IMG/VR virus record: IMGVR_UViG_3300018475_000095
DNA: 64,000 bases
Strand: one strand, 5' to 3'
From: a virus
Lineage: Duplodnaviria > Heunggongvirae > Uroviricota > Caudoviricetes
Shown: positions 4,585 through 63,833 of the stretch, piece after piece
Layout: the number at the start of each line of letters is the position of its first letter
How positions within the stretch are numbered: the stretch's first letter is position 1
The notes under the pieces: model-generated
Told to the model about the DNA's origin: nothing
The model's input: only the letters and a program-made list of their open reading frames with translations
The model's database searches: none
Made by a program: the position numbers and the translations under genes

Positions 4585-5112
4585 CTAAAAGCTAGATAAA
4601 TTTTTATTAGAATTTACTTTACTAAATTTTTCTTTATAATTCTTGTTTGCTTGATTTATTATTTTAATAGCTTCTATAGCATCATATATGGTTTCATCTA
4701 ATATCATATTAGATTTTTTACCTTTATATCTCTTAAGAAATTTTAAAGTCTTCTTTTCTAATTTATCTATATGATCGATTGGTTCATCGTTTGCAATAAC
4801 TAATACTTTATCATCAACTTCACCATCATCAATTGTTTTAATAACTCCTATCGGCTGAACTGAAACAATATCTAAAATGCCTCTTTGCTTGTTAGATAAT
4901 AATATCATATCCAATGGGTCACCATCTCCAGCAAAAGTTTCTGGAAAACATCCATAATAAAATGGATATTTTCCTATTACTTTCCTTACGCAGATTACAT
5001 GATCATTATTAGGTTCAACTAATTCATATTTACTGTTTGTCCCTTTAGGGATTTCAATGATTCCTGCATATGCAGAATCTTCTTTTAATCTAATATCTTT
5101 TATATAATTCAT
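4585..5112 (-). CDS. ppa: inorganic pyrophosphatase (family I)
   Basis: EIPKGTNSKYE and DGDPLDMILL match the family I PPase signature motifs. Confidence 0.85.
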   Translation of the reverse strand: MNYIKDIRLKEDSAYAGIIEIPKGTNSKYELVEPNNDHVICVRKVIGKYPFYYGCFPETFAGDGDPLDMILLSNKQRGILDIVSVQPIGVIKTIDDGEVDDKVLVIANDEPIDHIDKLEKKTLKFLKRYKGKKSNMILDETIYDAIEAIKIINQANKNYKEKFSKVNSNKNLSSF

Positions 5113-5124
5113 TATAAAATCTCT

Positions 5125-7377
5125 CTATAATCTAATATCTGGATCATCATCTATATTATAAAAATCTTCATCCGAGATAATTGTTTCTTCACCTATATCT
5201 TCATTCTTTTCTTTAACTGAATGTGCTATAGCAACTGCTTGTTTTGGATCTTTACCTGCTTCTATTTCTGTTTCTACATTTTTCTTAAATGCTTCTTCTG
5301 AAGATGATTGAATAAGTTTTTCAACTATATTTCTATTTAAATCAAGAACATGTTCATCGTGCTCTTCATATTCACCATCACAATATGCACCATAGCATTC
5401 ACCAAAACTGCTTACATGTATTTTATCTTTACCTATTTCTTTAGCATATTCAACAGCAGCATCAAATGAATCAAATTCATCTTCTTGTTCGCCATCTTTG
5501 TCTACAGTAAATGTAACGATTCCTTTCTCTTCGGCTCTAGATAAAGCTGTAAAATACTCATCTTCTAATTGAGTATAGATGTCTGCTCTACCTTCTTGCA
5601 ATTTGTTACTAAATAATTTAAATAGATCTTTATGAACAATAAATTCCGAACCATGTATGTCTACATCAATGATATCTTCGAAATCAGTTTCTGTGCTTCC
5701 TTCTACTTCATAAGTGGCGTTTCTAGTTACATAAATATAATCTTCTGCAGTTTCTTTTAATTTATTAGTTAATTCTCTAGCTTCTTCCCTAGTTAAATTA
5801 TCACCTTTAATTTCACCATCTGAATCTACTATATAATATGAATTAATTAAATGAGTATCTTCTGTTAAATCTTTATGCTTAGGATATTTTAAATGAAAAG
5901 TAGAATTTTTACCGTGTTTTCCATATGCAGTTAAATGATCGTCAATTATAAATGAAATATTTTTTGATAATAGAAAATCTTTAAATTCATCTTCTGCTTC
6001 TGCTTTAATAGTTATTTGATAAGGAGATTGATCTATTTTTCTTTTTGCATCTTCAATAGATAGAGCTTCTAATAATTCAACATCTTCTTTTTTATGCCAT
6101 TTTCTATAAGCATCTGTTTTTAAATAAGCAGTTATAATTCCAAGATCTTCATGATCAAAATAAGCGCTGTCATCATATTTTTGGATAATTAAGTCTAACT
6201 TATTTGCTAATTTATCCATTTGAGTGTAAGGCAACTGTGCTCTAACTTCCACCCTTGTTTGAAAATTATTAATTGGAATAATATCTACATAAAGATAATC
6301 TCCAATTAAATCATTATAATCTTCTTCATCTAAACCTGAGAACCTCTCTCTTACAGCTTGTTTAATTTCTTGTTTTAAAGAAACTATATTTATATCTTCT
6401 GTTAAACTTTCATCGCATTTTCTGATTACTTTAACATTGCTATCAGCTATGAATTCTTCTTTATCAGAAGGTTCTAATCCAAGTAAAGTTAATAAGCTAG
6501 AATTTTGTTCATAACCAGCATACATCTTAGCAAATTCTTTAGCTATCTCTTCTGGCAAGTATTTTTTATTTATTCTGTCTAAGTAATCTTGGCATAGTAC
6601 TGGGCAAAAATCCATTTTAGCTTTTCTTGTTTCAGGAGCTTCTACTTCATAACAATATTTATAAGTATTAGCATAATCTTCATCTTTATGATCAAGCATA
6701 TGTATGAGATGTTCAGGATCTAAATTTAATTGATCTTTATAAGCATCAATAACTTCAGAGCTTAATTTGTAAGTTTTATTTATAATATCACCTACTTTAT
6801 ATTCAGTGTCGCTATAATGATATAAAGGAGCATTTATATCTTCATTTAATTCACTAATTACATTACCTTCATCGTCAAATAAATCATAATATTCTATGGC
6901 TTCTAAAAATTCTTGTGTAGAATAATCTGGGTCATAGATATGACATGCAGCAGCTACTGCTTTTACGTCTGATAGGTCTTTAGGCGAATAATCTCTTTCC
7001 CAACCTATTATATTATGAAGAACATATAAAGTATGTTCCATTGATGGCATAGTATCGATATCTTCTTCTAATTCATCTAAATTAGCTTTAGGTGGATAAA
7101 TAGTAACATTGTGAATAGCACTATAAGTATCAGAACCATCTTCTTCAGTGACTTCTTTTTCAATACTGAAATCTATATCACCTAAAGTATCTTCAATTAT
7201 TTTATCAGCATACAAATGATCATGTTTCCAATCTCCCCAACTGATAGATACTGCGAATGAATCTTTGCCTGTAGGCCAAATATCTGGATAAATTCTTGCA
7301 TCAGCTAACGCTTTACTAACTCTATCTATTATCTCTTCTGTGCTACTAGCTGCAACAGCTTCTTTTAATAATTTCAT
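5125..7377 (-). CDS. large highly acidic hypothetical protein
   Basis: 750-aa ORF, very D/E-rich, with no recognised catalytic motif. Confidence 0.65.
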   Translation of the reverse strand: MKLLKEAVAASSTEEIIDRVSKALADARIYPDIWPTGKDSFAVSISWGDWKHDHLYADKIIEDTLGDIDFSIEKEVTEEDGSDTYSAIHNVTIYPPKANLDELEEDIDTMPSMEHTLYVLHNIIGWERDYSPKDLSDVKAVAAACHIYDPDYSTQEFLEAIEYYDLFDDEGNVISELNEDINAPLYHYSDTEYKVGDIINKTYKLSSEVIDAYKDQLNLDPEHLIHMLDHKDEDYANTYKYCYEVEAPETRKAKMDFCPVLCQDYLDRINKKYLPEEIAKEFAKMYAGYEQNSSLLTLLGLEPSDKEEFIADSNVKVIRKCDESLTEDINIVSLKQEIKQAVRERFSGLDEEDYNDLIGDYLYVDIIPINNFQTRVEVRAQLPYTQMDKLANKLDLIIQKYDDSAYFDHEDLGIITAYLKTDAYRKWHKKEDVELLEALSIEDAKRKIDQSPYQITIKAEAEDEFKDFLLSKNISFIIDDHLTAYGKHGKNSTFHLKYPKHKDLTEDTHLINSYYIVDSDGEIKGDNLTREEARELTNKLKETAEDYIYVTRNATYEVEGSTETDFEDIIDVDIHGSEFIVHKDLFKLFSNKLQEGRADIYTQLEDEYFTALSRAEEKGIVTFTVDKDGEQEDEFDSFDAAVEYAKEIGKDKIHVSSFGECYGAYCDGEYEEHDEHVLDLNRNIVEKLIQSSSEEAFKKNVETEIEAGKDPKQAVAIAHSVKEKNEDIGEETIISDEDFYNIDDDPDIRL

Positions 7378-56316: not shown

Positions 56317-56545
56317 ATTCCTTTTCCGTTAAGGGCAACGAGCATTACCTAGACTTACTAGGGCTATAAGCAATTAGAAATCTCGTTCTAATTCAAAGAT
56401 ATAACCTGTATATCACAGACATTTCTTATAAGCTCTTTCGACTTATCGTGGATAAATCCAACTTAACATCTTTTTAAAAGATTGAAATGTAGTATTTAGA
56501 AAACTGTTTATGTATTAATGTTGCAGTTTACGTGTCGTTAAACAA

Positions 56546-56725
56546 TTAGTTCTTTTTAGAACTTTTATCCTTGTAACATGATTTATTAGTATTTACATCT
56601 AATTTACTTAAATCAAAATTTCTTTTGTTTAATTTGCAAGAATATAATTGAGAATTTTTATTTATATTTTGTACTTGAAAATACATACAATCTTTACAAC
56701 TTATAATCTTAATATTCTTGTTCAT
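56546..56725 (-). CDS. small Cys-containing ORF (about 59 aa)
   Basis: AGAGGT plus 7 nt then ATG; CKDC...C...C. Coordinates approximate. Confidence 0.3.
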   Translation of the reverse strand: MNKNIKIISCKDCMYFQVQNINKNSQLYSCKLNKRNFDLSKLDVNTNKSCYKDKSSKKN

Positions 56726-56736
56726 TAGATTTACCT

Positions 56737-57192
56737 CTATTTTGCTGAATTAATTATAGTATAAATTTCATTCACAGTATACCCTTCTTTTTTAAGAAGT
56801 AAAATCATAACTGCTTTTTCAATATCGTCTTCATCATCTTTAGAACGAGTAGTAACAAACTTTCTGTCATCATAAGTTAGCATTATAGTTTTATCTTTGC
56901 TTTTTATAACTTTTTTAATATTACGAAAATCTAGAATATCTTTATCTTCTTCAATCTCATTAAGATTATCTTCTCTAACAATAAAAGCACCTAGTTGATT
57001 TTCAATTAAAACATAACCATCTTTTCTATAATCAACATATTCAAATTCTGTTTTATTTTCTTCAATCTTAGATATATTGAGCATACCTTCAATAAGCTTT
57101 GTTGATATTTTATCATTGTCTTGATACTGGATATAATCAATAACTAAATCACTTCTATTTAAAAATTTCTTGTTTTTAATAGTAAATTTCAT
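56737..57192 (-). CDS. hypothetical protein
   Basis: 151-aa ORF. Confidence 0.5.
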   Translation of the reverse strand: MKFTIKNKKFLNRSDLVIDYIQYQDNDKISTKLIEGMLNISKIEENKTEFEYVDYRKDGYVLIENQLGAFIVREDNLNEIEEDKDILDFRNIKKVIKSKDKTIMLTYDDRKFVTTRSKDDEDDIEKAVMILLLKKEGYTVNEIYTIINSAK

Positions 57193-57199
57193 CTTTTCT

Positions 57200-57330
57200 T
57201 CTCCTTTAATAATATTAAGTTAAATAGCTCTGGTAACTTAGTAGGTGCACCATTACCAAAGCTAAGTTACTTAAAATGAGTAAGTTTGGTTAAAACAGCT
57301 CAACCAGCGTGAAGGTACTTACTCATTGAG
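57200..57330 (-). ncRNA. structured element immediately 3' of the suppressor tRNA
   Basis: Two perfect stems: ATGAGTAAGT/ACTTACTCAT (57276-85 with 57317-26) and GTAACTTAG/CTAAGTTAC (57233-41 with 57262-70), the latter enclosing the GGTGCACC palindrome. Confidence 0.35.
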
Positions 57331-57331
57331 C

Positions 57332-57425
57332 CAGGGGTTGCAGGAATCGAACCCGCGCTATAGGTTTTGGAGACCTATTGTTACGGTTTTGAAGACCGCT
57401 TGACTTCCAATTATCGTACACCCCT
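57332..57425 (-). tRNA. tRNA-Trp-like opal suppressor, anticodon UCA, with a second CCA-anticodon-like hairpin in the variable region
   Basis: Hand-folded from AGGGGTG (A1:U72, G73). D-loop AATTGGAA. Anticodon arm GCGGT-CTTCAAA-ACCGT. A 26-nt variable arm contains ATAGGT-CTCCAAA-ACCTAT. T-arm GCGGG-TTCGATT-CCTGC. No encoded CCA. Confidence 0.6.
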
Positions 57426-57745
57426 ACATGGATAAGTTGTTTCTTGGCTGTCTTTCCGCAAGTGTCAAGATTCTTTTTGTTAAGATTACTCTAATTTATC
57501 ATTGGCTCACTTATCAAGAACCAAACGTTTGCTAGTGGAACGCTACACCCTATCACTCCGTTGGTATAGGACAACATGGTTTTAAAGCGACTTTTCCTTG
57601 TCGAAATTATTTACAAGACCTGAAAAAGATATTCTCCCAACGAATAGTTTTTTAAAATTGCTGTAAAGGTCTTATTTTTTACAAGACACAGTATAAAACG
57701 AATTTCAAGTTCCTTATGTAGAATTGCTGTATGTGTCTTATTATA

Positions 57746-59251
57746 TTATACAGTTTTTAATGTAATTTCTGCATATCTATCTTTAGTTATTTCTTTTAGC
57801 AATGCTATATATGGATCTATTTCATTTGATAAAACCATATTTACGACTGCTGGACTAAATCCTGATACTAAAGCTACCCCTAAATCATTTTGAATTACTG
57901 GGATTGTCTTTGTTCTTGAATTAACATTCCAGAAAGACATTTTAGGTAATTTATAACCTGCATTCTCATATCTTTGTCTTATAGCATCAAATAATTTAGC
58001 ATCTGGAGCAGTATGATCCCATCTATTAGTTCTTGTTGCGTTTGTTGTAGCACATTCATCAAATTCCATATCTGATATAATTAAAATATTTGGTATCTCT
58101 TCTTGAGACATATTATTTTTAACTGCTGTTTTTAATATTAAATCAAATACAGCTTCAATATTAGTATTAGCAACCTCTGCTTCTGCATAAGCTACATTTA
58201 ATTTATCTTTTAAATTATCATATTTTTCAAAAGAAACTAATCTTGGTTGATTCGAAAAAGTGATAAATTTATCTTTAAACTCACCTTTACATCTTTCTGC
58301 AAAATAAATAGATAATGCAGTTGCAACATCTAATGCAGATGTGCTAGTCTTTCCTACATTACAAGTCATCGAACCTGAACCATCTCTAACTACTATAGTT
58401 GAACTATCTCCTTGAACATAATCAGGTAAAGATTTCCATAATTCTTCTAATGTGATATCTTTATTTCTACAATTTCTATACTTGCAAACTATATCATGAG
58501 GGAATAGAGTTGAAGCATTTATTTTTGTCTCACCTTTTTCAAGTTTAGATAAATAATCTCTTCTTCTATCTTCATCATGTCTTAAAAATGCCCCCATATA
58601 TTTTATGTTAGCTTGAGATGGTACATTTTCATATTTTATCTCTTCCCATTTATTTGAAGAACATTTTCTTTCTAACACATCTAAATGGTTTCTTAAATCA
58701 GAAAGCATTTTTCTATAATCTTTTTCTGACATTCCTAAATAAGATTTAATTCTCCTTGCTTTTCGTTTTGTTTCGCTTGAAGATGTATTTATTGATGGCA
58801 TCCATTTAGCTAATAATGATATAGGCTCTTTATTAACAAGATTTTTAGCATCTTTTCTCAATTGGGTTTTTACGTATTCAAGCATTTGTTTTTCTAGTTT
58901 AGTACCAAAGAAAACAAATAAATCATCGTATCTACCAAATTCAACAATCCAATCAAATACTCTTTCATCTAATTCATCTATAATTTCAGTTACACATGTT
59001 CTAAATAGTCTTCTTTCTCCTAAACCTTCTCTTGCATCTCTAGCATAGAATAGGTATTTAAGAGCGAGTTCTTTGTTTTCAAACCATGCTTTTTTAAATT
59101 CTATCTCAATTTCTTCTTCACTTGAATCCCTAAATGAAGATATTTTAAAGTTAAAGTCTAATAATGCTTTACCAGTAGCAGCATACCCTTTTGCACCATT
59201 TTCTGTGGTTGAGGTATTTAATTCATTTTTTAATCCTTGTAAAAATGTCAT
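57746..59251 (-). CDS. vWA-domain protein with Ro60/TROVE-like architecture (helical N-domain plus MIDAS)
   Basis: VVRDGSGSM is a MIDAS motif, preceded by a roughly 280-aa helical region. Size and domain order resemble Ro60/Rsr. Confidence 0.6.
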   Translation of the reverse strand: MTFLQGLKNELNTSTTENGAKGYAATGKALLDFNFKISSFRDSSEEEIEIEFKKAWFENKELALKYLFYARDAREGLGERRLFRTCVTEIIDELDERVFDWIVEFGRYDDLFVFFGTKLEKQMLEYVKTQLRKDAKNLVNKEPISLLAKWMPSINTSSSETKRKARRIKSYLGMSEKDYRKMLSDLRNHLDVLERKCSSNKWEEIKYENVPSQANIKYMGAFLRHDEDRRRDYLSKLEKGETKINASTLFPHDIVCKYRNCRNKDITLEELWKSLPDYVQGDSSTIVVRDGSGSMTCNVGKTSTSALDVATALSIYFAERCKGEFKDKFITFSNQPRLVSFEKYDNLKDKLNVAYAEAEVANTNIEAVFDLILKTAVKNNMSQEEIPNILIISDMEFDECATTNATRTNRWDHTAPDAKLFDAIRQRYENAGYKLPKMSFWNVNSRTKTIPVIQNDLGVALVSGFSPAVVNMVLSNEIDPYIALLKEITKDRYAEITLKTV

Positions 59252-59421
59252 AACAAGATTCTCCTTTTTAATTTATTTGCTGTTAAAATCTTTTATTTGT
59301 TTTTATTCACATGAGATTATACCATAAAATTTCAGGCACATCTTATGCTCTCCTATAATAATATACAGTAATTCACCTGAAATTTAACATCTAAATATAT
59401 TTATTTTTAATATTATTTATT

Positions 59422-60162
59422 CTATTCTTTTATTTTTAACACATTTATTCTTTTTGAATAAGCGGTCATTGCATCTAATGCTATAATTCCAGCATCTTCA
59501 AATGGTTCAAAGCACTCATATTCACTGCCATATTTCTTGTGTAGATTAAAATGCCCATACCCTGAATGCCAATGACCACATACTATAGTTTTATCTTTTT
59601 CTCTTACCCTATCATTCCATGCTTTCATACCATTGACCCATCGAGCACATTCCCAGTGATAATCATTACTATTTCTCCAATCTGGATTATAATTCAAAAT
59701 AGCATTGCTTGTCTCATAAGGTTCAGTTGCTGTTGTAAATGAAGGTATCCAACCGTGTACTATAATATATTTATCAACTTCAAAATAATTTACACAATTC
59801 TTTTTTATGAATTTAAGTACTTTCTTTAAATATCTTTCGTCTTGTAACTGCATACATGTAGATATAGTTCCATTTGAATAGTGATATGAAGAAGCAGCAC
59901 CACCTGTAAAATTTAACTCCTTAACACATTCTTCTAACAAATCTTCATGATTACCTCTTACATATACAAATCTTTTCTTATTGTTTAACCATTGAACAAA
60001 TTTAAATAATTCTACAGCCTCATTACCTCTATCAAATAAATCACCCGCCACTACTAGTATATGGTCTGGATTTTTTAAATCAAATTTTTTCTTCTTTAAT
60101 TCTTTCTTAAGTATGGAATAAAAACCATGGACATCACTAACTACAAAATATGTTTTACTCAC
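59422..60162 (-). CDS. calcineurin-like metallophosphoesterase
   Basis: SDVHG, GDLFDRG and GNHE motifs. Confidence 0.7.
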   Translation of the reverse strand: MSKTYFVVSDVHGFYSILKKELKKKKFDLKNPDHILVVAGDLFDRGNEAVELFKFVQWLNNKKRFVYVRGNHEDLLEECVKELNFTGGAASSYHYSNGTISTCMQLQDERYLKKVLKFIKKNCVNYFEVDKYIIVHGWIPSFTTATEPYETSNAILNYNPDWRNSNDYHWECARWVNGMKAWNDRVREKDKTIVCGHWHSGYGHFNLHKKYGSEYECFEPFEDAGIIALDAMTAYSKRINVLKIKE

Positions 60163-60523
60163 CTTGATTCCTCACTTCTATAACTTGAATATATTCTAAT
60201 AGACTACTGTACACCCTATTATCGTTATCACTGCAATTAAGAAACCTTGATTCAATACACTCAACTAATTCTTGATATGCTTTCTTATAATTTAATTTAT
60301 CTTCTACTATCACATCAATATCTTCACTTAATAGTAACCCTATTACTATATAATCACAAGGATAACCTGTTGTATGAGAAATACATTCTATGTGAGCTTC
60401 TTCTTTATTTTCATAAATATATTGATAGGTGTAAGTATCATCTCCTTTCTTATGATACTTTATTTTGCTATTAGGTTTAATATGTAACATATTCATAACT
60501 TCAATTAAATAATGACTATTCAT
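60155..60523 (-). CDS. hypothetical protein
   Basis: 122-aa ORF. Confidence 0.5.
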   Translation of the reverse strand: MNSHYLIEVMNMLHIKPNSKIKYHKKGDDTYTYQYIYENKEEAHIECISHTTGYPCDYIVIGLLLSEDIDVIVEDKLNYKKAYQELVECIESRFLNCSDNDNRVYSSLLEYIQVIEVRNQGE

Positions 60524-60703
60524 AATCTCTCCTATGTTTTTGTTTTCTACTATATTTCTTTTTATTTTTATAAACTTTACTTGGGTTAGAAGAAATGATA
60601 TTTATAAAATTTTCATCTCTTATTTTGATAAAAGTTGATTTAATGGTTTTATCAGGAAATACCATAGTAAATTTTTTCTTCATATTATATTATACAGTAA
60701 AAA

Positions 60704-60780
60704 ATGGCGATCCGTAGCGGACTTCAACCGCTGACCTTCTGCGTGACAGGCAGACGTTCTAACCAACTGAACTAACGGAC
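60704..60780 (-). tRNA. tRNA-Asp (GUC)
   Basis: Cloverleaf by hand: acceptor GGTCCGT/ACGGATC, anticodon loop CTGTCAC, CCA encoded. Confidence 0.7.
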
Positions 60781-60989
60781 CATATACCCTAACTTTATAT
60801 ACCTTCAAATAAATGCGTTAGGAACATTGATATTATCTTTTAGCTGTCAAGACAAGTATTAAGAAGCTCCTTTATCTCCCAAGGAAAGGACAAGAGTTTT
60901 ATCTGTACTCTGAAATCAGACAGCCAAAACATCTGCTTTTAAAGTTAGGATTCATAACATTAGTTTTAAGTGCACATTCCTAACAGGCT

Positions 60990-61078
60990 TGGCGGGGAGT
61001 GAGGGATTCGAACCCCCGTGCCCTTACAGACAAATGGTTTTCAAGACCATCCCAGTACGACCGCTTTGGTAACTCTCC
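60990..61078 (-). tRNA. tRNA-Ser (UGA), type II
   Basis: Anticodon loop CTTGAAA, long variable arm, T-loop TTCGAAT, CCA encoded. Confidence 0.65.
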
Positions 61079-61081
61079 ACG

Positions 61082-61157
61082 TGGTAGCTCTAAGGAGATT
61101 CGAACTCCTGTTTGCACATTGAAAGCGTGCTGTCCTAGCCAATTAGACGATAGAGCC
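61082..61157 (-). tRNA. tRNA-Glu (UUC)
   Basis: Acceptor GGCTCTA/TAGAGCT with G1:U72, loop CTTTCAA, T-loop TTCGAAT, CCA. Confidence 0.7.
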
Positions 61158-61163
61158 ATATTT

Positions 61164-61254
61164 TGGCGGTAAGTATTAGATTCGAACTAATAGTAGAAAT
61201 TGCTTCCTACGGCAGTTTAGCAAACTGCTGGTTTAACCATTCACCCAACTTACC
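61164..61254 (-). tRNA. tRNA-Ser (GCU), type II
   Basis: Acceptor GGTAAGT/ACTTACC, loop TTGCTAA, long variable arm, CCA. Confidence 0.7.
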
Positions 61255-61257
61255 ACA

Positions 61258-61333
61258 TGGTGCCTGGACTTAGAATCGAACTAAGATGGGTGGATTTTCA
61301 GTCCACTGCCTTGACCAACTAGGCTATCCAGGC
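61258..61333 (-). tRNA. tRNA-Phe (GAA)
   Basis: Acceptor GCCTGGA/TCCAGGC, loop CTGAAAA, T-loop TTCGATT, CCA. Confidence 0.75.
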
Positions 61334-61336
61334 ATA

Positions 61337-61412
61337 TGGTAGGAGAGATAGGACTTGAACCTATAATCTTCTGTGTATCAGACAGAAACCTTAACCATTT
61401 GGCCACTCTCCT
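61337..61412 (-). tRNA. tRNA-Ile (GAU)
   Basis: Acceptor AGGAGAG/CTCTCCT, loop CTGATAC, CCA. Confidence 0.7.
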
Positions 61413-61416
61413 ATAT

Positions 61417-61490
61417 TGGAGCGACATGTCGGATTTGAACCGACGACAACTGCTTGGAAGGCAGGAATGTTACCACTACACCAATGTCGC
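61417..61490 (-). tRNA. tRNA-Gly (UCC)
   Basis: Acceptor GCGACAT/ATGTCGC, loop CTTCCAA, T-loop TTCAAAT, CCA. Confidence 0.7.
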
Positions 61491-61493
61491 ATT

Positions 61494-61567
61494 TGGCAGG
61501 CCCTGAAAGACTCGAACTTCCAACAATGGTTTTGGAGACCATAGTTTTACCTTTAAACTAAGGGCCT
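61494..61567 (-). tRNA. tRNA-Trp (CCA)
   Basis: Acceptor AGGCCCT/AGGGCCT (A1:U72, G73), D-stem GTTT/AAAC, anticodon arm ATGGT-CTCCAAA-ACCAT, CCA. Confidence 0.75.
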
Positions 61568-61684
61568 AAAATTTGTAACCACCTATTGAGTTACCACTAC
61601 GCCGCCGATGGTTACATTCTTATATCGTACTTGATTCTCACCTTAATGACTAACTCTCGCGTAATAAGGAATAGATATAAGAAA

Positions 61685-61758
61685 TGGCAGGCTCTGATAG
61701 AATCGAACTACCACCTACAGAGTCAAAGTCTGTTGTTCTACCTTTAAACTAAAAGCCT
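61685..61758 (-). tRNA. tRNA-Gln (UUG)
   Basis: Loop CTTTGAC, T-loop TTCGATT, CCA. Confidence 0.65.
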
Positions 61759-61761
61759 ATA

Positions 61762-61837
61762 TGGTGTTCCCACCTGGATTCGAACCAAGATTTAAGGTTT
61801 AGAAGACCCTTGTACTAATCCCTTATACTATGAGAAC
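61762..61837 (-). tRNA. tRNA-Arg (UCU)
   Basis: Loop CTTCTAA, T-arm CTTGG-TTCGAAT-CCAGG, CCA. Confidence 0.7.
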
Positions 61838-61840
61838 AAA

Positions 61841-61916
61841 TGGTTGCGGGGACTGGGCTCGAACCAGTGACCTTCGGATAATGAGTCCGACGAGATTCCA
61901 TCTTCTCCACCCCGCT
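61841..61916 (-). tRNA. tRNA-Met (CAU) with unpaired 1:72 (A.A), possibly initiator-type
   Basis: Loop CTCATTA, T-loop TTCGAGC, acceptor AGCGGGG/CCCCGCA, CCA. Confidence 0.6.
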
Positions 61917-62179
61917 ATATAAATGTCTATGTGGAGTCACCTCACTAACAATATAAGACTGATACGACTTGCTATTTTGGATTACAAGCTTTACCTGCAA
62001 CTTAACATATGATACATTCGCAATCGATTAAGCTCTTTATTCGAGACATATCTCTGGTACTTAATGAAACCACCTATCTTTTGACTATAAGTTGATAAGT
62101 ACTTATTTATACCATAGGATTTACACCTATACTTTCCCGTATCCATATCGGGCTGGTCTAATATTTAACCTAGATATAA

Positions 62180-62264
62180 TGGTGGGATGTTATGGACTCG
62201 AACCACCGAACTCCGAAGAGATGAGATTTACAGTCTCAGGTCATTGCCGCTAGACAAACATCCC
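62180..62264 (-). tRNA. tRNA-Tyr (GUA), type II
   Basis: Acceptor GGGATGT/ACATCCC, loop CTGTAAA, long variable arm, CCA. Confidence 0.65.
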
Positions 62265-62267
62265 ATG

Positions 62268-62795
62268 TGGTGGACCCTCAGGGACTCGAACCCCGGACCA
62301 ACCGGTTCATCATCGATTGAGCTTATTTTAAGGAAGAAAGAATCTTATCAGCTAAGTAATCTTGCGCCATATGTATTCCGAGCTCTTGTTTATTTTTTGG
62401 TTCAACTAATCTCAACGTAAATGTTCTTGTTTTAATTTCCTCTTTAGGCAAAAGATAACATTTTCCAGCGATCGCTGTACAGAAGAAATCAATTTCTGAA
62501 TCATCATAAAATTTTACTCTTTTGTTATTACCGGAAGTTAATTGAACATACAAGTATTCATCATTATTTTTTAACTTTCCGCTTTTACATTGGATACGAT
62601 ATAATTTATTTTTATAATCAATAATAAAATCATATCTAAGTGAACCAAAAGGAATTGATATTCCGCAACCTAAACTTTGTAAATAATGCATTGAAGCAAG
62701 CTCAGCGCAATTTCCTTTAACAGCACTCTCTTCCATATAATACCTCTTAATCTTCTTGATGAGCCGGTAGCTCTAACCAACTGAGCTAAGGGTCC
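62268..62795 (-). tRNA. tRNA (CAU anticodon, Met/Ile2-type) interrupted between nt 36 and 37 by a 451-bp insertion (62308-62758)
   Basis: 5' half is GGACCCT-TA-GCTC-AGTTGGTTA-GAGC-T-ACCGG-CTCAT (62795..62759). 3' half is AA-CCGGT...CGGGG-TTCGAGT-CCCTG-AGGGTCC-A-CCA (62307..62268). The halves pair as the acceptor and anticodon stems. Confidence 0.6.
62323..62736 (-). CDS. Hjc-like PD-(D/E)xK nuclease encoded inside a tRNA anticodon-loop insertion
   Basis: GNCAELASMHYLQSLGCGI...YDFIIDYKNKLYRIQCK parallels the archaeal Hjc GxxAE...G...D...E(V)K pattern, with Q in place of E. AAGAGG RBS. Confidence 0.55.
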   Translation of the reverse strand: MEESAVKGNCAELASMHYLQSLGCGISIPFGSLRYDFIIDYKNKLYRIQCKSGKLKNNDEYLYVQLTSGNNKRVKFYDDSEIDFFCTAIAGKCYLLPKEEIKTRTFTLRLVEPKNKQELGIHMAQDYLADKILSSLK

Positions 62796-63067
62796 ACGGT
62801 CTTGGACGTTACATTTTTATTTTATAGACCATCATCCAAGGCAGGTCTAATTGTGTTTGGGCAGTTCATCTAACTCCATTTAACTACAGCTGCTGTTTCC
62901 GCACCATTTCCCTTCGAGATTTTTACTGATTATATAATCACGATTTTAGGAGCAACATCTTGAAGTAATGTGTCCCTTGGCTTCGTAGCACCCATACACA
63001 AATTTCTAATTTAATATCAATATATTTTATGTACACTTAAATATATTCTCTAAGGTATTAGCACCTA

Positions 63068-63143
63068 TGGAGCTTCCAGTCCGAGTCGAACGGACAACCT
63101 ACTGATTACAAGTCAGTTGCGCTGCCAATTGCGCCATGGAAGC
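63068..63143 (-). tRNA. tRNA-Thr (UGU)
   Basis: Acceptor GCTTCCA/TGGAAGC, D GCGC/GCGC, loop CTTGTAA, CCA. Confidence 0.75.
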
Positions 63144-63145
63144 AT

Positions 63146-63221
63146 TGGTCCGAATGGAGGGACTCGAACCCCCGACCTCATGGTCCCAAACCACGCAGTC
63201 TACCAACTGACCTACATTCGG
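63146..63221 (-). tRNA. tRNA-Pro (UGG)
   Basis: C1:G72, loop TTTGGGA with G37, T-loop TTCGAGT, CCA. Confidence 0.7.
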
Positions 63222-63480
63222 ATAAAGTATATTTTATATAATATGATAGGTTGGTTTATTCAAATTATATAAACTCGATTTATCAATTATTATTATCAGT
63301 TTTATAGTGTAACATCAAATATACAAACTTCCCACTTTTGTGCACCTTTTTGTCTCGTCAAAATTCTAAAAACGTATGTACCCTACCGCTTTCTACATAA
63401 GGAACGGAGATTTTACTTTGAAACTCACAAAGTCATGTCGAACCCATCTGCATTTTTATCTAACCGTCGTTAGAGGGTTA

Positions 63481-63555
63481 TGGTTGCGAATACAGGACTC
63501 GAACCTATAACTTACTGCGTATGAAGCAGCCACTCTACCATTGAGTTAATTCGCA
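63481..63555 (-). tRNA. tRNA-Met/Ile2 (CAU)
   Basis: Acceptor TGCGAAT/ATTCGCA, loop TTCATAC, T-loop TTCGAGT, CCA. Confidence 0.65.
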
Positions 63556-63759: not shown

Positions 63760-63833
63760 TGGCTCCCCGGGTCCGATTCGAACGGACGGCCTATCGGTTA
63801 ACAGCCGAGTGCTCCACCGCTGAGCTATTGAGG
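63760..63833 (-). tRNA. tRNA-Asn (GUU)-like gene with a non-complementary 3' acceptor strand (possible pseudo or chimeric tRNA)
   Basis: Positions 1-65 are canonical: GCCTCAA-TA-GCTC...loop CTGTTAA...GTCCG-TTCGAAT-CGGAC. Positions 66-72 read CCGGGGA, which cannot pair with GCCTCAA. Confidence 0.4.

Follow-up and report, generated by a model that had tools for sequence, protein, structure and literature searches.

A Ro60-fold protein of the DUF2828 family in phages and an associated hairpin RNA motif, a possible Ro60/Y-RNA-type pair

We analysed a stretch of 64,000 nucleotides from a Caudoviricetes phage (IMG/VR virus record IMGVR_UViG_3300018475_000095; hereafter the window) around a gene for a 501-aa protein of the DUF2828/DUF7788 family (57746–59251, − strand). 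The predicted structure of this protein superposes on Ro60, and its gene is flanked by three copies of a short hairpin RNA motif which recurs beside homologous genes in many Gram-positive phages, covaries in its closing helix, and in some homologous units encloses a domain of YrlA type. In our interpretation the locus encodes a diverged Ro60-like protein, accompanied by a class of Y-like RNAs peculiar to it and by an operator through which it regulates itself, a chain of steps to which, taken whole, we give an even chance. New here are the structural support for a Ro60 fold in the DUF2828 family and the hairpin motif that goes with it; the protein family and its "Ro-like" label are already present in phage annotation, and Y RNAs have been speculated for one Listeria phage (PMC12282133).

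The protein belongs to its family over its full length: the Pfam models DUF2828 (N-terminal; 126.4 bits, cut-off 29, E 1.7e-36) and DUF7788 (C-terminal, vWA-like; 150.1 bits, cut-off 27.1, E 7e-44) both match, and PHROG 850, named "RNA-binding protein", covers residues 1–494 (E 2.2e-132). A DUF2828 homologue is carried by 711 phage records. Among them are Felix O1-like phages, P100-like Listeria phages, Staphylococcus 6ec and Twort-like phages, Campylobacter and Vibrio phages, and also cluster L mycobacteriophages, whose copy is annotated as "Ro-like RNA binding protein"; at least 8000 metagenomic protein clusters match the family at E <= 1e-10. Identity of the 501-aa protein to the family members of cluster L mycobacteriophages and P100-like Listeria phages is 32–39%. 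No NCBIfam family was matched, PADLOC returned nothing meaningful, and the literature search yielded no functional paper on DUF2828.

Structure prediction with AlphaFold from the single sequence was unusable (predicted local distance difference test, pLDDT, 38.6), and an alignment of 142 sequences was used instead, giving a model with pLDDT 89.7 and a predicted template modelling score of 0.87. The model is helical to about residue 275 and continues as an alpha/beta vWA domain, in agreement with the original prediction, made from the DNA letters, of a 501-aa open reading frame (ORF) with a helical N-terminal domain followed by a metal ion-dependent adhesion site (MIDAS). The complete MIDAS motif (DxSxS...T...D) is present, and its residues D290, S292 and S294 (in VVRDGSGSM), T363 and D394 are invariant among 142 aligned homologues. 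The protein has invariant basic residues as well (R71, R74, R80, R107, K149, R180, R187). In a Foldseek search against the PDB the top 12 matches are all Ro60 chains (phiLo phage, Xenopus, human), aligned over their full length with E values from 2e-7 to 6e-5, and below them only isolated vWA domains are listed. The superposition spans both ring and vWA domain with 381–393 aligned residues, a match which Ro60 proteins alone give, at 11–16% identity in the fold alignment. Given these Foldseek matches and the invariant MIDAS, we take the Ro60 architecture to be real, that is, a helical-repeat ring closed by a C-terminal vWA domain and superposable on solved Ro60 structures; the modelled protein very probably has the Ro60 fold. 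The resemblance is in fold only, judging from the model, and that the protein belongs to the TROVE sequence family cannot be demonstrated: searches of PDB sequences, by phmmer and by hmmsearch with a profile, gave no significant Ro60 match, and vWA_Ro60 (PF25045) stayed below its Pfam cut-off (13.7 bits vs 27.7, E 0.062). The Ro60/Rsr architecture proposed originally is therefore upheld by the fold and the MIDAS and finds no counterpart in TROVE sequence similarity, of which there is none at E <= 1. In our proposal the protein would be a highly diverged, phage-specific relative of Ro60/Rsr, with its ring of helical repeats closed by vWA/MIDAS.

One could instead suppose that the protein does not bind RNA, the vWA/MIDAS part serving protein contacts, as in midasin, Rpn10 and TFIIH p44, and the helical part forming a scaffold, so that its likeness to Ro60 would be architectural only. 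This would suit the usual role of vWA domains, which is to bind proteins, as well as the low identity to Ro60 and the missing match to the TROVE hidden Markov model, but it would leave aside that the structural match takes in ring and vWA together and is confined to Ro60 proteins, that the gene persistently keeps an RNA-gene neighbourhood, and that YrlA-like RNAs adjoin the mycobacteriophage, Enterococcus and Sinorhizobium members of the family; we consider it very improbable. As for that neighbourhood, DUF2828 genes adjoin tRNA arrays in Felix O1-like, Campylobacter, Bacillus, Listeria and Enterococcus phages, and RtcB is encoded downstream of the DUF2828 gene in Listeria phage LP-048.

Directly downstream of the gene lies a non-coding stretch of 319 nt (57427–57745, −), which had been predicted to be a long structured leader with a repeated sequence and, possibly, a Y-RNA-like partner of the protein. 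That the stretch is non-coding was confirmed, its sole small ORF (29 codons) being broken in relatives. As a whole it folds no better than shuffled sequence (z-score of the minimum free energy, MFE, +0.13), and because of this lack of excess stability the idea of one long structured leader RNA was dropped; what remains of it is a pair of tandem units in the first ~140 nt. The repeat is also as predicted: TTTACAAGAC (GTCTTGTAAA on the − strand) occurs exactly twice in the window, at 57610–57619 and 57678–57687, and both copies are part of a 66–68-nt tandem duplication, whose halves we call U1 and U2. The non-chance signal in the leader is these two 68-nt units, above all their conservation and covariation across phages.

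We trained a covariance model, R1, on 15 units from close relatives. U1 (57676–57745, −; 74.6 bits with R1; MFE z −2.3) is kept in all relatives, and its closing helix pairs 57733–57739 with 57683–57689 (AAGACAC/GUGUCUU), extendable to 10 bp, with ACAGCAA following the 5′ strand and GU following the 3′ strand. U2 (57608–57675, −; 55.7 bits with filters off; MFE z −1.8) has the helix AAGACC/GGUCUU together with UACAGCAA, and an inner hairpin, UAUUC-GUUGGGA-GAAUA, which is retained with changed stems in the related loci L008 and L027; the interiors of U1 and U2 measure 41–44 nt. Two such units directly follow the stop codon in all relatives compared for the leader, whose proteins are 61–86% identical. 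A mini-hairpin after U2, CGAC-AAGGAAAA-GUCG (57584–57603, −), is weak (z −0.8) and looks like a degenerate third unit that lacks ACAGCAA, since its counterpart in L008 and L027 reads AAGAC-AAGGAAUA-GUCUU-UAAAA.

Across phages the unit takes the form 5′-AAGAYNC-N-NACAGCAA...(22–100 nt)...GNRUCUU-GU-3′, and the middle of the helix differs between units by compensatory pairs (CAC/GUG, CC/GG, UAC/GUA, UGC/GCA, UUC/GAA, CUC/GAG). R1 finds units beside the DUF2828 genes of Staphylococcus, Listeria, Bacillus and Enterococcus phages, where the proteins are 36–39% identical. Staphylococcus phage 6ec has three tandem units in the 219-nt gap after its DUF2828 gene, and these are the sole R1 matches with E < 0.01 in its whole 93.8-kb genome; Listeria phage LP-048 has two units upstream of the gene (L033 2648–2806), and in Bacillus phages Nate and PBC2 units lie between the tRNA array and the gene. 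Further matches come from Enterococcus phages EA1 and VRE9_1, a Twort-like phage and phage contigs of gut metagenomes. Within the window, an R1 scan with default filters (E <= 1) returned U1, a third copy termed U0 and a weak antisense match on U1, and nothing else; recovering U2 required the filters to be switched off, in a scan limited to 56500–61000.

In an alignment of 33 units all 10 modelled helix pairs, including the seven core pairs, are changed on both sides, pair counts which are somewhat inflated by the fitting of the alignment to the model, a point on the debit side of our interpretation. The covariation score is 0.455 vs 0.162 for shuffled alignments, with none of 500 shuffles reaching 0.455, and at most 0.152 for slid registers; the compensatory changes are plain in the raw unit sequences too. 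Each unit is an inverted repeat (AAGAC...GTCTT), and units stand in tandem, as might be expected of elements that work at the level of DNA, such as protein-binding inverted repeats or sites of recombination or replication. Such elements are already disfavoured and scarcely credible: the inner helix positions covary instead of being conserved, the motif is asymmetric, ACAGCAA being present on a single side, R1 gives the reverse strand a far lower score (19 vs 75 bits), and among the IMG/VR matches listed (see below) the motif lies on the strand of the DUF2828 gene in 43 of 44 loci. We conclude with high confidence that the hairpin is a genuine structured RNA. It is absent from Rfam 15 and from the literature searched, and appears to be an undescribed motif.

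The third copy, U0 (59248–59298, −; R1 34.4 bits, E 7e-6), is short and lies in the 5′ untranslated region (UTR) of the DUF2828 gene itself. It reads AAAAGAUUUU-AACAGCAA...AAAGGAGAAUCUUGUU-AUG, or in full AAAAGAUUUU-AACAGCAAAUAAAUUAAAAAGG-AGAAUCUUGUU-AUG, so placed that the Shine-Dalgarno sequence falls where the loop meets the 3′ strand and that the motif ends 3 nt ahead of the start codon. An equivalent overlaps the Shine-Dalgarno sequence and AUG at the same place in L007, L031, L032 and L043. On account of this position, over the Shine-Dalgarno sequence and start codon, the arrangement suggests that U0 is a candidate translational operator. About 17 nt upstream of U0 stands an extended −10-like element, TGGTATAAT (59316–59324, −), a consensus match only, read by eye. 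Also read by eye were two overlapping perfect −10 hexamers across the stop codon of the gene, preceded by TG (TATAATATAAT; 57740–57750, −); a perfect TATAAT thus covers the stop codon, 6–8 nt before the U1 helix, and CTGTATAAT is kept ahead of the first unit in L007–L009, L027, L029, L031 and L032. From these elements a transcription start would be predicted at or just before the 5′ strand of U1. A scan for promoters and terminators, which misses −10-only elements, had found fewer promoter-like sites than in shuffled sequence and no terminators. In Listeria phage LP-048 and Bacillus phage PBC2 the first unit follows a full sigma-A promoter, TTGACA-N17-TATAAT/TATCAT.

With U1 starting at the stop codon, U0 covering the Shine-Dalgarno sequence and AUG, and no canonical terminator after U2, the units might act purely in cis on the DUF2828 mRNA, U0 limiting initiation and U1 and U2 serving as 3′-end stabilisers or processing stops, with neither a free small RNA nor a ribonucleoprotein (RNP). 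However, units in Listeria, Bacillus and Enterococcus phages lie upstream of the gene, up to several kb off and some with their own consensus sigma-A promoter, and a mere stabiliser would need neither a sequence-specific single-stranded ACAGCAA nor tRNA-like cargo. A purely cis-acting role is accordingly rated as rather unlikely.

Cargo of this kind is seen in Enterococcus phage EA1: inside a helix of R1 type, a T arm, an acceptor stem closed by a loop and a D arm are arranged in permuted order, which is the YrlA design. This domain scores 45.9 bits (E 5e-9) with the Rfam YrlA model, short of its gathering score (69); the outer stem of YrlA cannot be fitted, and the R1 helix stands in its place. 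A second YrlA-like sequence adjoins the EA1 unit, and in L032 one unit encloses an ordinary tRNA. YrlA-like sequences were also noted near DUF2828 genes of other phages: in mycobacteriophage Appletree2 one lies 125 nt downstream of the gene (L036 4038–4146; 39.8 bits, sub-threshold), and in Sinorhizobium phage phiM12 one with the tRNA-like core only lies 1.3 kb upstream (L051 116–180; 35.2 bits, likewise sub-threshold). Appletree2 gp52 is identical to gp53 of mycobacteriophage LeBron, which is reported to be toxic when overexpressed in M. smegmatis (PMC13148394). For the Y-RNA-like partner envisaged in the leader, U1 and U2, conserved and covarying beside DUF2828 genes, are good candidates, and the YrlA-like mimic in homologous units lends the idea support; the module amounts to only ~140 nt, and the window's U1 and U2 contain no tRNA-like domain, no Ro-binding motif and nothing that Rfam matches as a Y RNA or YrlA. 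As in Y RNAs, the ends of the units are paired in a conserved, covarying helix (33 units), its sequence being unlike that of the Ro-binding helix, and the units lie on the same strand as the gene and within about 4 kb of it, U1 and U2 at the stop codon and U0 in the 5′ UTR.

To examine the association independently of the protein, IMG/VR was searched with a protein-blind pattern (AAGAYNC NN ACAGCAA N22-52 RTCTTGT), which yielded at least 120 loci; the counts given here are among the matches listed. Full complementarity at the free or half-specified helix positions was seen in 105 of 120, against a chance estimate of about 7%. A DUF2828 homologue is present in 44 loci, on the same strand in 43 of them and in many within 25–900 nt. 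DUF2828 is also by a wide margin the commonest neighbouring ORF family (33 loci within 3.5 kb, with 33 of 34 such genes on the motif strand), while it was found in none of 17 unrelated control loci (186 kb). The association of motif and DUF2828 is thus strong, not absolute.

Several results weigh against a Ro60/Y-RNA-type interpretation. On the side of the protein, there is no match to TROVE (PF05731) in Pfam at E <= 1, and a profile of the family, run against PDB sequences, reached an E value of only 0.57 on phiLo Ro60, where it aligned to the MIDAS stretch. On the side of the RNA, thermodynamic support for single units is modest (z −2.3 for U1, −1.8 for U2, −0.6 for U0); Rfam finds tRNAs only, and no Y RNA, YrlA (RF00019, RF02553) or riboswitch, in the whole window at gathering score or over 57100–57800 at E <= 10; and the units carry AAGAYNC-N-NACAGCAA in place of GNCGAAN0-1G / GGUCCGA, the Ro-binding sequence near the 5′ end of known Y RNAs (PMC4201824). 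R1 units were not found beside the DUF2828 genes of Felix O1-like, Vibrio, Sinorhizobium, Campylobacter and mycobacteriophage loci; because of this null result at Gram-negative phage and mycobacteriophage loci, the pairing of R1 unit and protein is not family-wide. Lastly, among the IMG/VR matches listed that are well flanked (at least 3 kb on each side), only 13 of 33 have DUF2828 within 3 kb, and most of those without it sit among tRNA genes, so that the hairpin may belong to tRNA regions generally.

This last point can be developed into an explanation of its own, in which the units are elements of tRNA-region transcripts, either processing or stabilising modules or independent small RNAs, with no direct interaction with DUF2828, the two co-occurring through a shared tRNA neighbourhood in large Firmicutes phages. 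Of the 17 well-flanked listed loci without a nearby DUF2828 gene for which this was tallied, 15 have 1–15 tRNA genes within 3 kb; units often lie between tRNA array and gene (L040, L047), and some enclose a tRNA or tRNA-like domain. Against it, no unit lies inside the 15-tRNA array of the window, while three copies hug the DUF2828 gene; 6ec has no tRNA array at its DUF2828 gene, which stands between terminase genes, yet three units follow that gene and none occurs elsewhere; U0 sits within the gene's own ribosome-binding site in five phages; and strand agreement with the gene is 43 of 44 among the matches listed. We regard this explanation as unlikely, if by no means negligible.

Returning to the Ro60/Y-RNA-type interpretation, we infer from this arrangement the following scheme of binding, small-RNA release, autoregulation and RNA surveillance. 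The protein would recognise a module made of the 7–10-bp helix AAGAYNC/GNRUCUU, single-stranded ACAGCAA immediately behind the 5′ strand, and a GU that follows the 3′ strand. U1 and U2 would probably be released as small RNAs of ~65–70 nt, either through transcription from a promoter overlapping the stop codon or when the 3′ end of the mRNA is processed, and would serve as Y-RNA-like partners in a particle. Surplus free protein would bind U0 over the ribosome-binding site and start codon and so shut off its own translation. The particle, by analogy, might act on structured or damaged RNA, most likely tRNA, a target suggested by the tRNA-like cargo in homologous units, the constant position near phage tRNA genes and the RNA-end-processing neighbours; a role in RNA surveillance is proposed because of the role of Ro60 and Y RNAs in bacteria (PMC4201824) and the example of phiLo (PMC12135203). 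In its broadest form, the DUF2828/DUF7788 proteins with the AAGAYNC/ACAGCAA hairpins would make up a second, phage-borne RNP of Ro60/Y-RNA type, with its own recognition code, modular cargo (plain hairpin, YrlA-type mimic, whole tRNA) and built-in operator, by which large Firmicutes phages survey or protect tRNAs and structured RNAs; this we put forward tentatively, at slightly less than an even chance.

The surroundings of the gene are those of AT-rich phage DNA (about 27% GC) with nearly all transcription of the window on the − strand. Upstream of the DUF2828 gene in the direction of transcription are a gene for a calcineurin-like metallophosphoesterase (59422–60162, −), which the neighbour tables show to be the conserved upstream neighbour in this phage clade, two small ORFs, likewise on the − strand, and a 15-gene tRNA array (60705–63555, −). 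The original prediction had put the tRNA array downstream of the gene, which is incorrect: the only tRNA there is one with anticodon UCA. Downstream, the non-coding stretch is followed by this UCA tRNA, two stable hairpins and then a gene at 56737–57192. The double hairpin was thus rightly predicted: the first element (57274–57327, −; z −3.3) is an 11-bp stem with an inner hairpin followed by UUUU, a terminator-like end of the leader/tRNA transcript, and the second (57219–57264, −; z −3.1) lies in the 5′ UTR of gene 56737–57192; both are common only to the window and L007. The part of the leader beyond the units, block B (57427–57575, −; ~150 nt non-coding; MFE z +0.64; no Rfam match), is near-invariant in the closest clade only (window, L007, L008, L009, L027/28), where the proteins differ by 14–25%, and shows 1-nt indels and four compensatory pairs among five sequences; it is missing in L029, and in L031/L032 a 35-aa ORF stands in its place. 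A 16-mer of block B gave 17 matches in IMG/VR, all of them unrelated chance ones, and a pattern with 27 specified bases gave no match in JGI metagenomes. Its 29-codon ORF was rejected as a gene, relatives having 1-nt indels and no start codon. Block B and the double hairpin after the tRNA lie outside the conserved module, which is the first ~140 nt of the leader only.

Some further features of these loci were noted. The tRNA array of the window includes a gene for a PD-(D/E)XK endonuclease (62323–62736, −; PDDEXK_5, E 1.6e-19), a family which is the second commonest neighbour of the hairpin motif among the IMG/VR matches listed. A partial tRNA at 63771–63827 (−), matched by Rfam at 41.6 bits over model positions 8–63 and not called by ARAGORN, could be a tRNA of truncated or unusual form lying at the array's far end. 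In L029 a gene for an IS605 OrfB/TnpB (Cas12f-like) protein (45–1172) lies just upstream of the metallophosphoesterase–DUF2828 pair. Listeria phage LP-048 has a match to ROOL RNA (L033 1460–2011; 90 bits, E 3e-17, slightly under the gathering score, 99.1) ~1 kb upstream of its DUF2828 gene, among tRNA genes; this could explain part of the highly abundant "small ORF" transcripts reported from the P100-like phage CKA15.

The UCA tRNA downstream of the leader (57330–57426, −; tRNA call and Rfam), an opal suppressor in accordance with the original prediction, has an unusual architecture: an extra arm of ~20 nt in the variable region copies the anticodon stem-loop of tRNA-Trp, with a 7-nt loop CUCCAAA (the form in the window) or GUCCAAA. 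UCA tRNAs with this arm also occur in L008 (6856–6948), L029 (3671–3763), L031 (2647–2737), L032 (4854–4945) and L045 (4627–4721), and its stem covaries between phages (AUAGGU/ACCUAU, ACAGU/ACUGU, UCGGU/ACCGA, GCAAU/AUUGC, ACGGU/ACCGU). The L031 tRNA has an acceptor stem identical to that of the array tRNA-Trp(CCA), which the UCA tRNAs of L008 and L032 closely resemble. It resembles a suppressor that derives from tRNA-Trp and carries a "decoy" Trp anticodon arm, and ARAGORN mislabels it as a selenocysteine (SeC) tRNA; perhaps the decoy arm keeps recognition by tryptophanyl-tRNA synthetase after the C34-to-U change. We found no description of the extra Trp-type arm in the literature searched. 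In L007, the closest relative (86% protein identity), the suppressor tRNA (about 6830–6900) lacks 20 nt, so that the anticodon loop and half of the extra arm are gone; no tRNA is called there, and the copy appears to be dead. Between hairpin units and suppressor tRNA, L032 (about 4735–4840) and L031 (2531–2638) have a 35-codon ORF; in L032 it contains an in-frame TGA at a position that is a sense codon in L031, a hint of possible TGA recoding in this phage group. The window itself shows no pervasive TGA recoding, and any recoding would lie outside it: under the standard code its coding density is 84%, and reading through TGA brings no consistent gain.

Ro60/Y-RNA particles are conserved from bacteria to humans, their function is only partly understood, and one phage Ro60 was characterised in 2025. 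DUF2828/DUF7788 proteins are known from some 700 sequenced phages and make up thousands of protein clusters from metagenomes, and if the proposed scheme is true, phages would hold a far larger branch of Ro60 that is invisible at the level of sequence, including the P100-like Listeria and Staphylococcus biocontrol phages. It would also provide a simple, mutable RNA recognition module, testable predictions on the bound RNAs, the key nucleotides and the repression by the protein of its own translation, and one more candidate structured-RNA family to curate; and it would suggest what some of the abundant RNAs are that a P100-like Listeria phage makes from unannotated regions close to its tRNA genes. 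The distribution of the motif, the YrlA-type fusion and the 5′-UTR copy are absent from Rfam 15 and the literature searched.

The closest known system is Ro60/Rsr with its Y RNAs (rsr-yrlA/yrlB, Deinococcus Rsr-Yrn1; PMC4201824). Both have a helical ring with a C-terminal vWA/MIDAS and candidate RNAs, often tandem, which are encoded on the gene's strand no more than a few hundred nt away and whose ends pair in a conserved helix; units of related phages carry a YrlA-type tRNA-like domain, and the gene neighbourhood includes RNA repair (RtcB in the Listeria phage). They differ in that the window protein is without TROVE sequence similarity, that AAGAYNC/GNRUCUU with ACAGCAA is unrelated to GNCGAAN0-1G / GGUCCGA, that the window units, of ~68 nt and without a tRNA-like domain, are nearer to YrlB in style, and that the window gene has a copy of the motif in its own ribosome-binding site. 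The Ro60 of Thermus phage phiLo binds the phage Y-like RNAs Yrl1/Yrl2 and host polynucleotide phosphorylase (PNPase) (PMC12135203; PDB 9kop, 9l5y). There, too, the Y-like RNAs are phage-encoded; however, phiLo Ro60 is a recognisable TROVE protein, whereas the window protein is DUF2828 with 15% identity to it, and the partner RNA and PNPase link are biochemical in phiLo, while the partner in the window is proposed from sequence. In the P100-like Listeria phage CKA15, strong sigma-A-type promoters are reported to drive abundant RNAs from unannotated regions near tRNA genes, and the authors of that study suggest, from HHpred, that the DUF2828 homologue is Rsr-like and that the RNAs might be Y RNAs (PMC12282133). 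With the DUF2828/DUF7788 family as such (PHROG 850; LeBron gp53; the P100-like Listeria "RNA-binding protein") there is no difference, the window protein being a direct member. Translational operators are well known for RNA-binding proteins of phages and ribosomes, such as T4 gp32, RegA and the autoregulated ribosomal proteins; the operator role in the window is, unlike theirs, deduced from position only, and as in those systems the presumed RNA target of the protein, U0, overlaps the Shine-Dalgarno sequence and start codon of its own gene.

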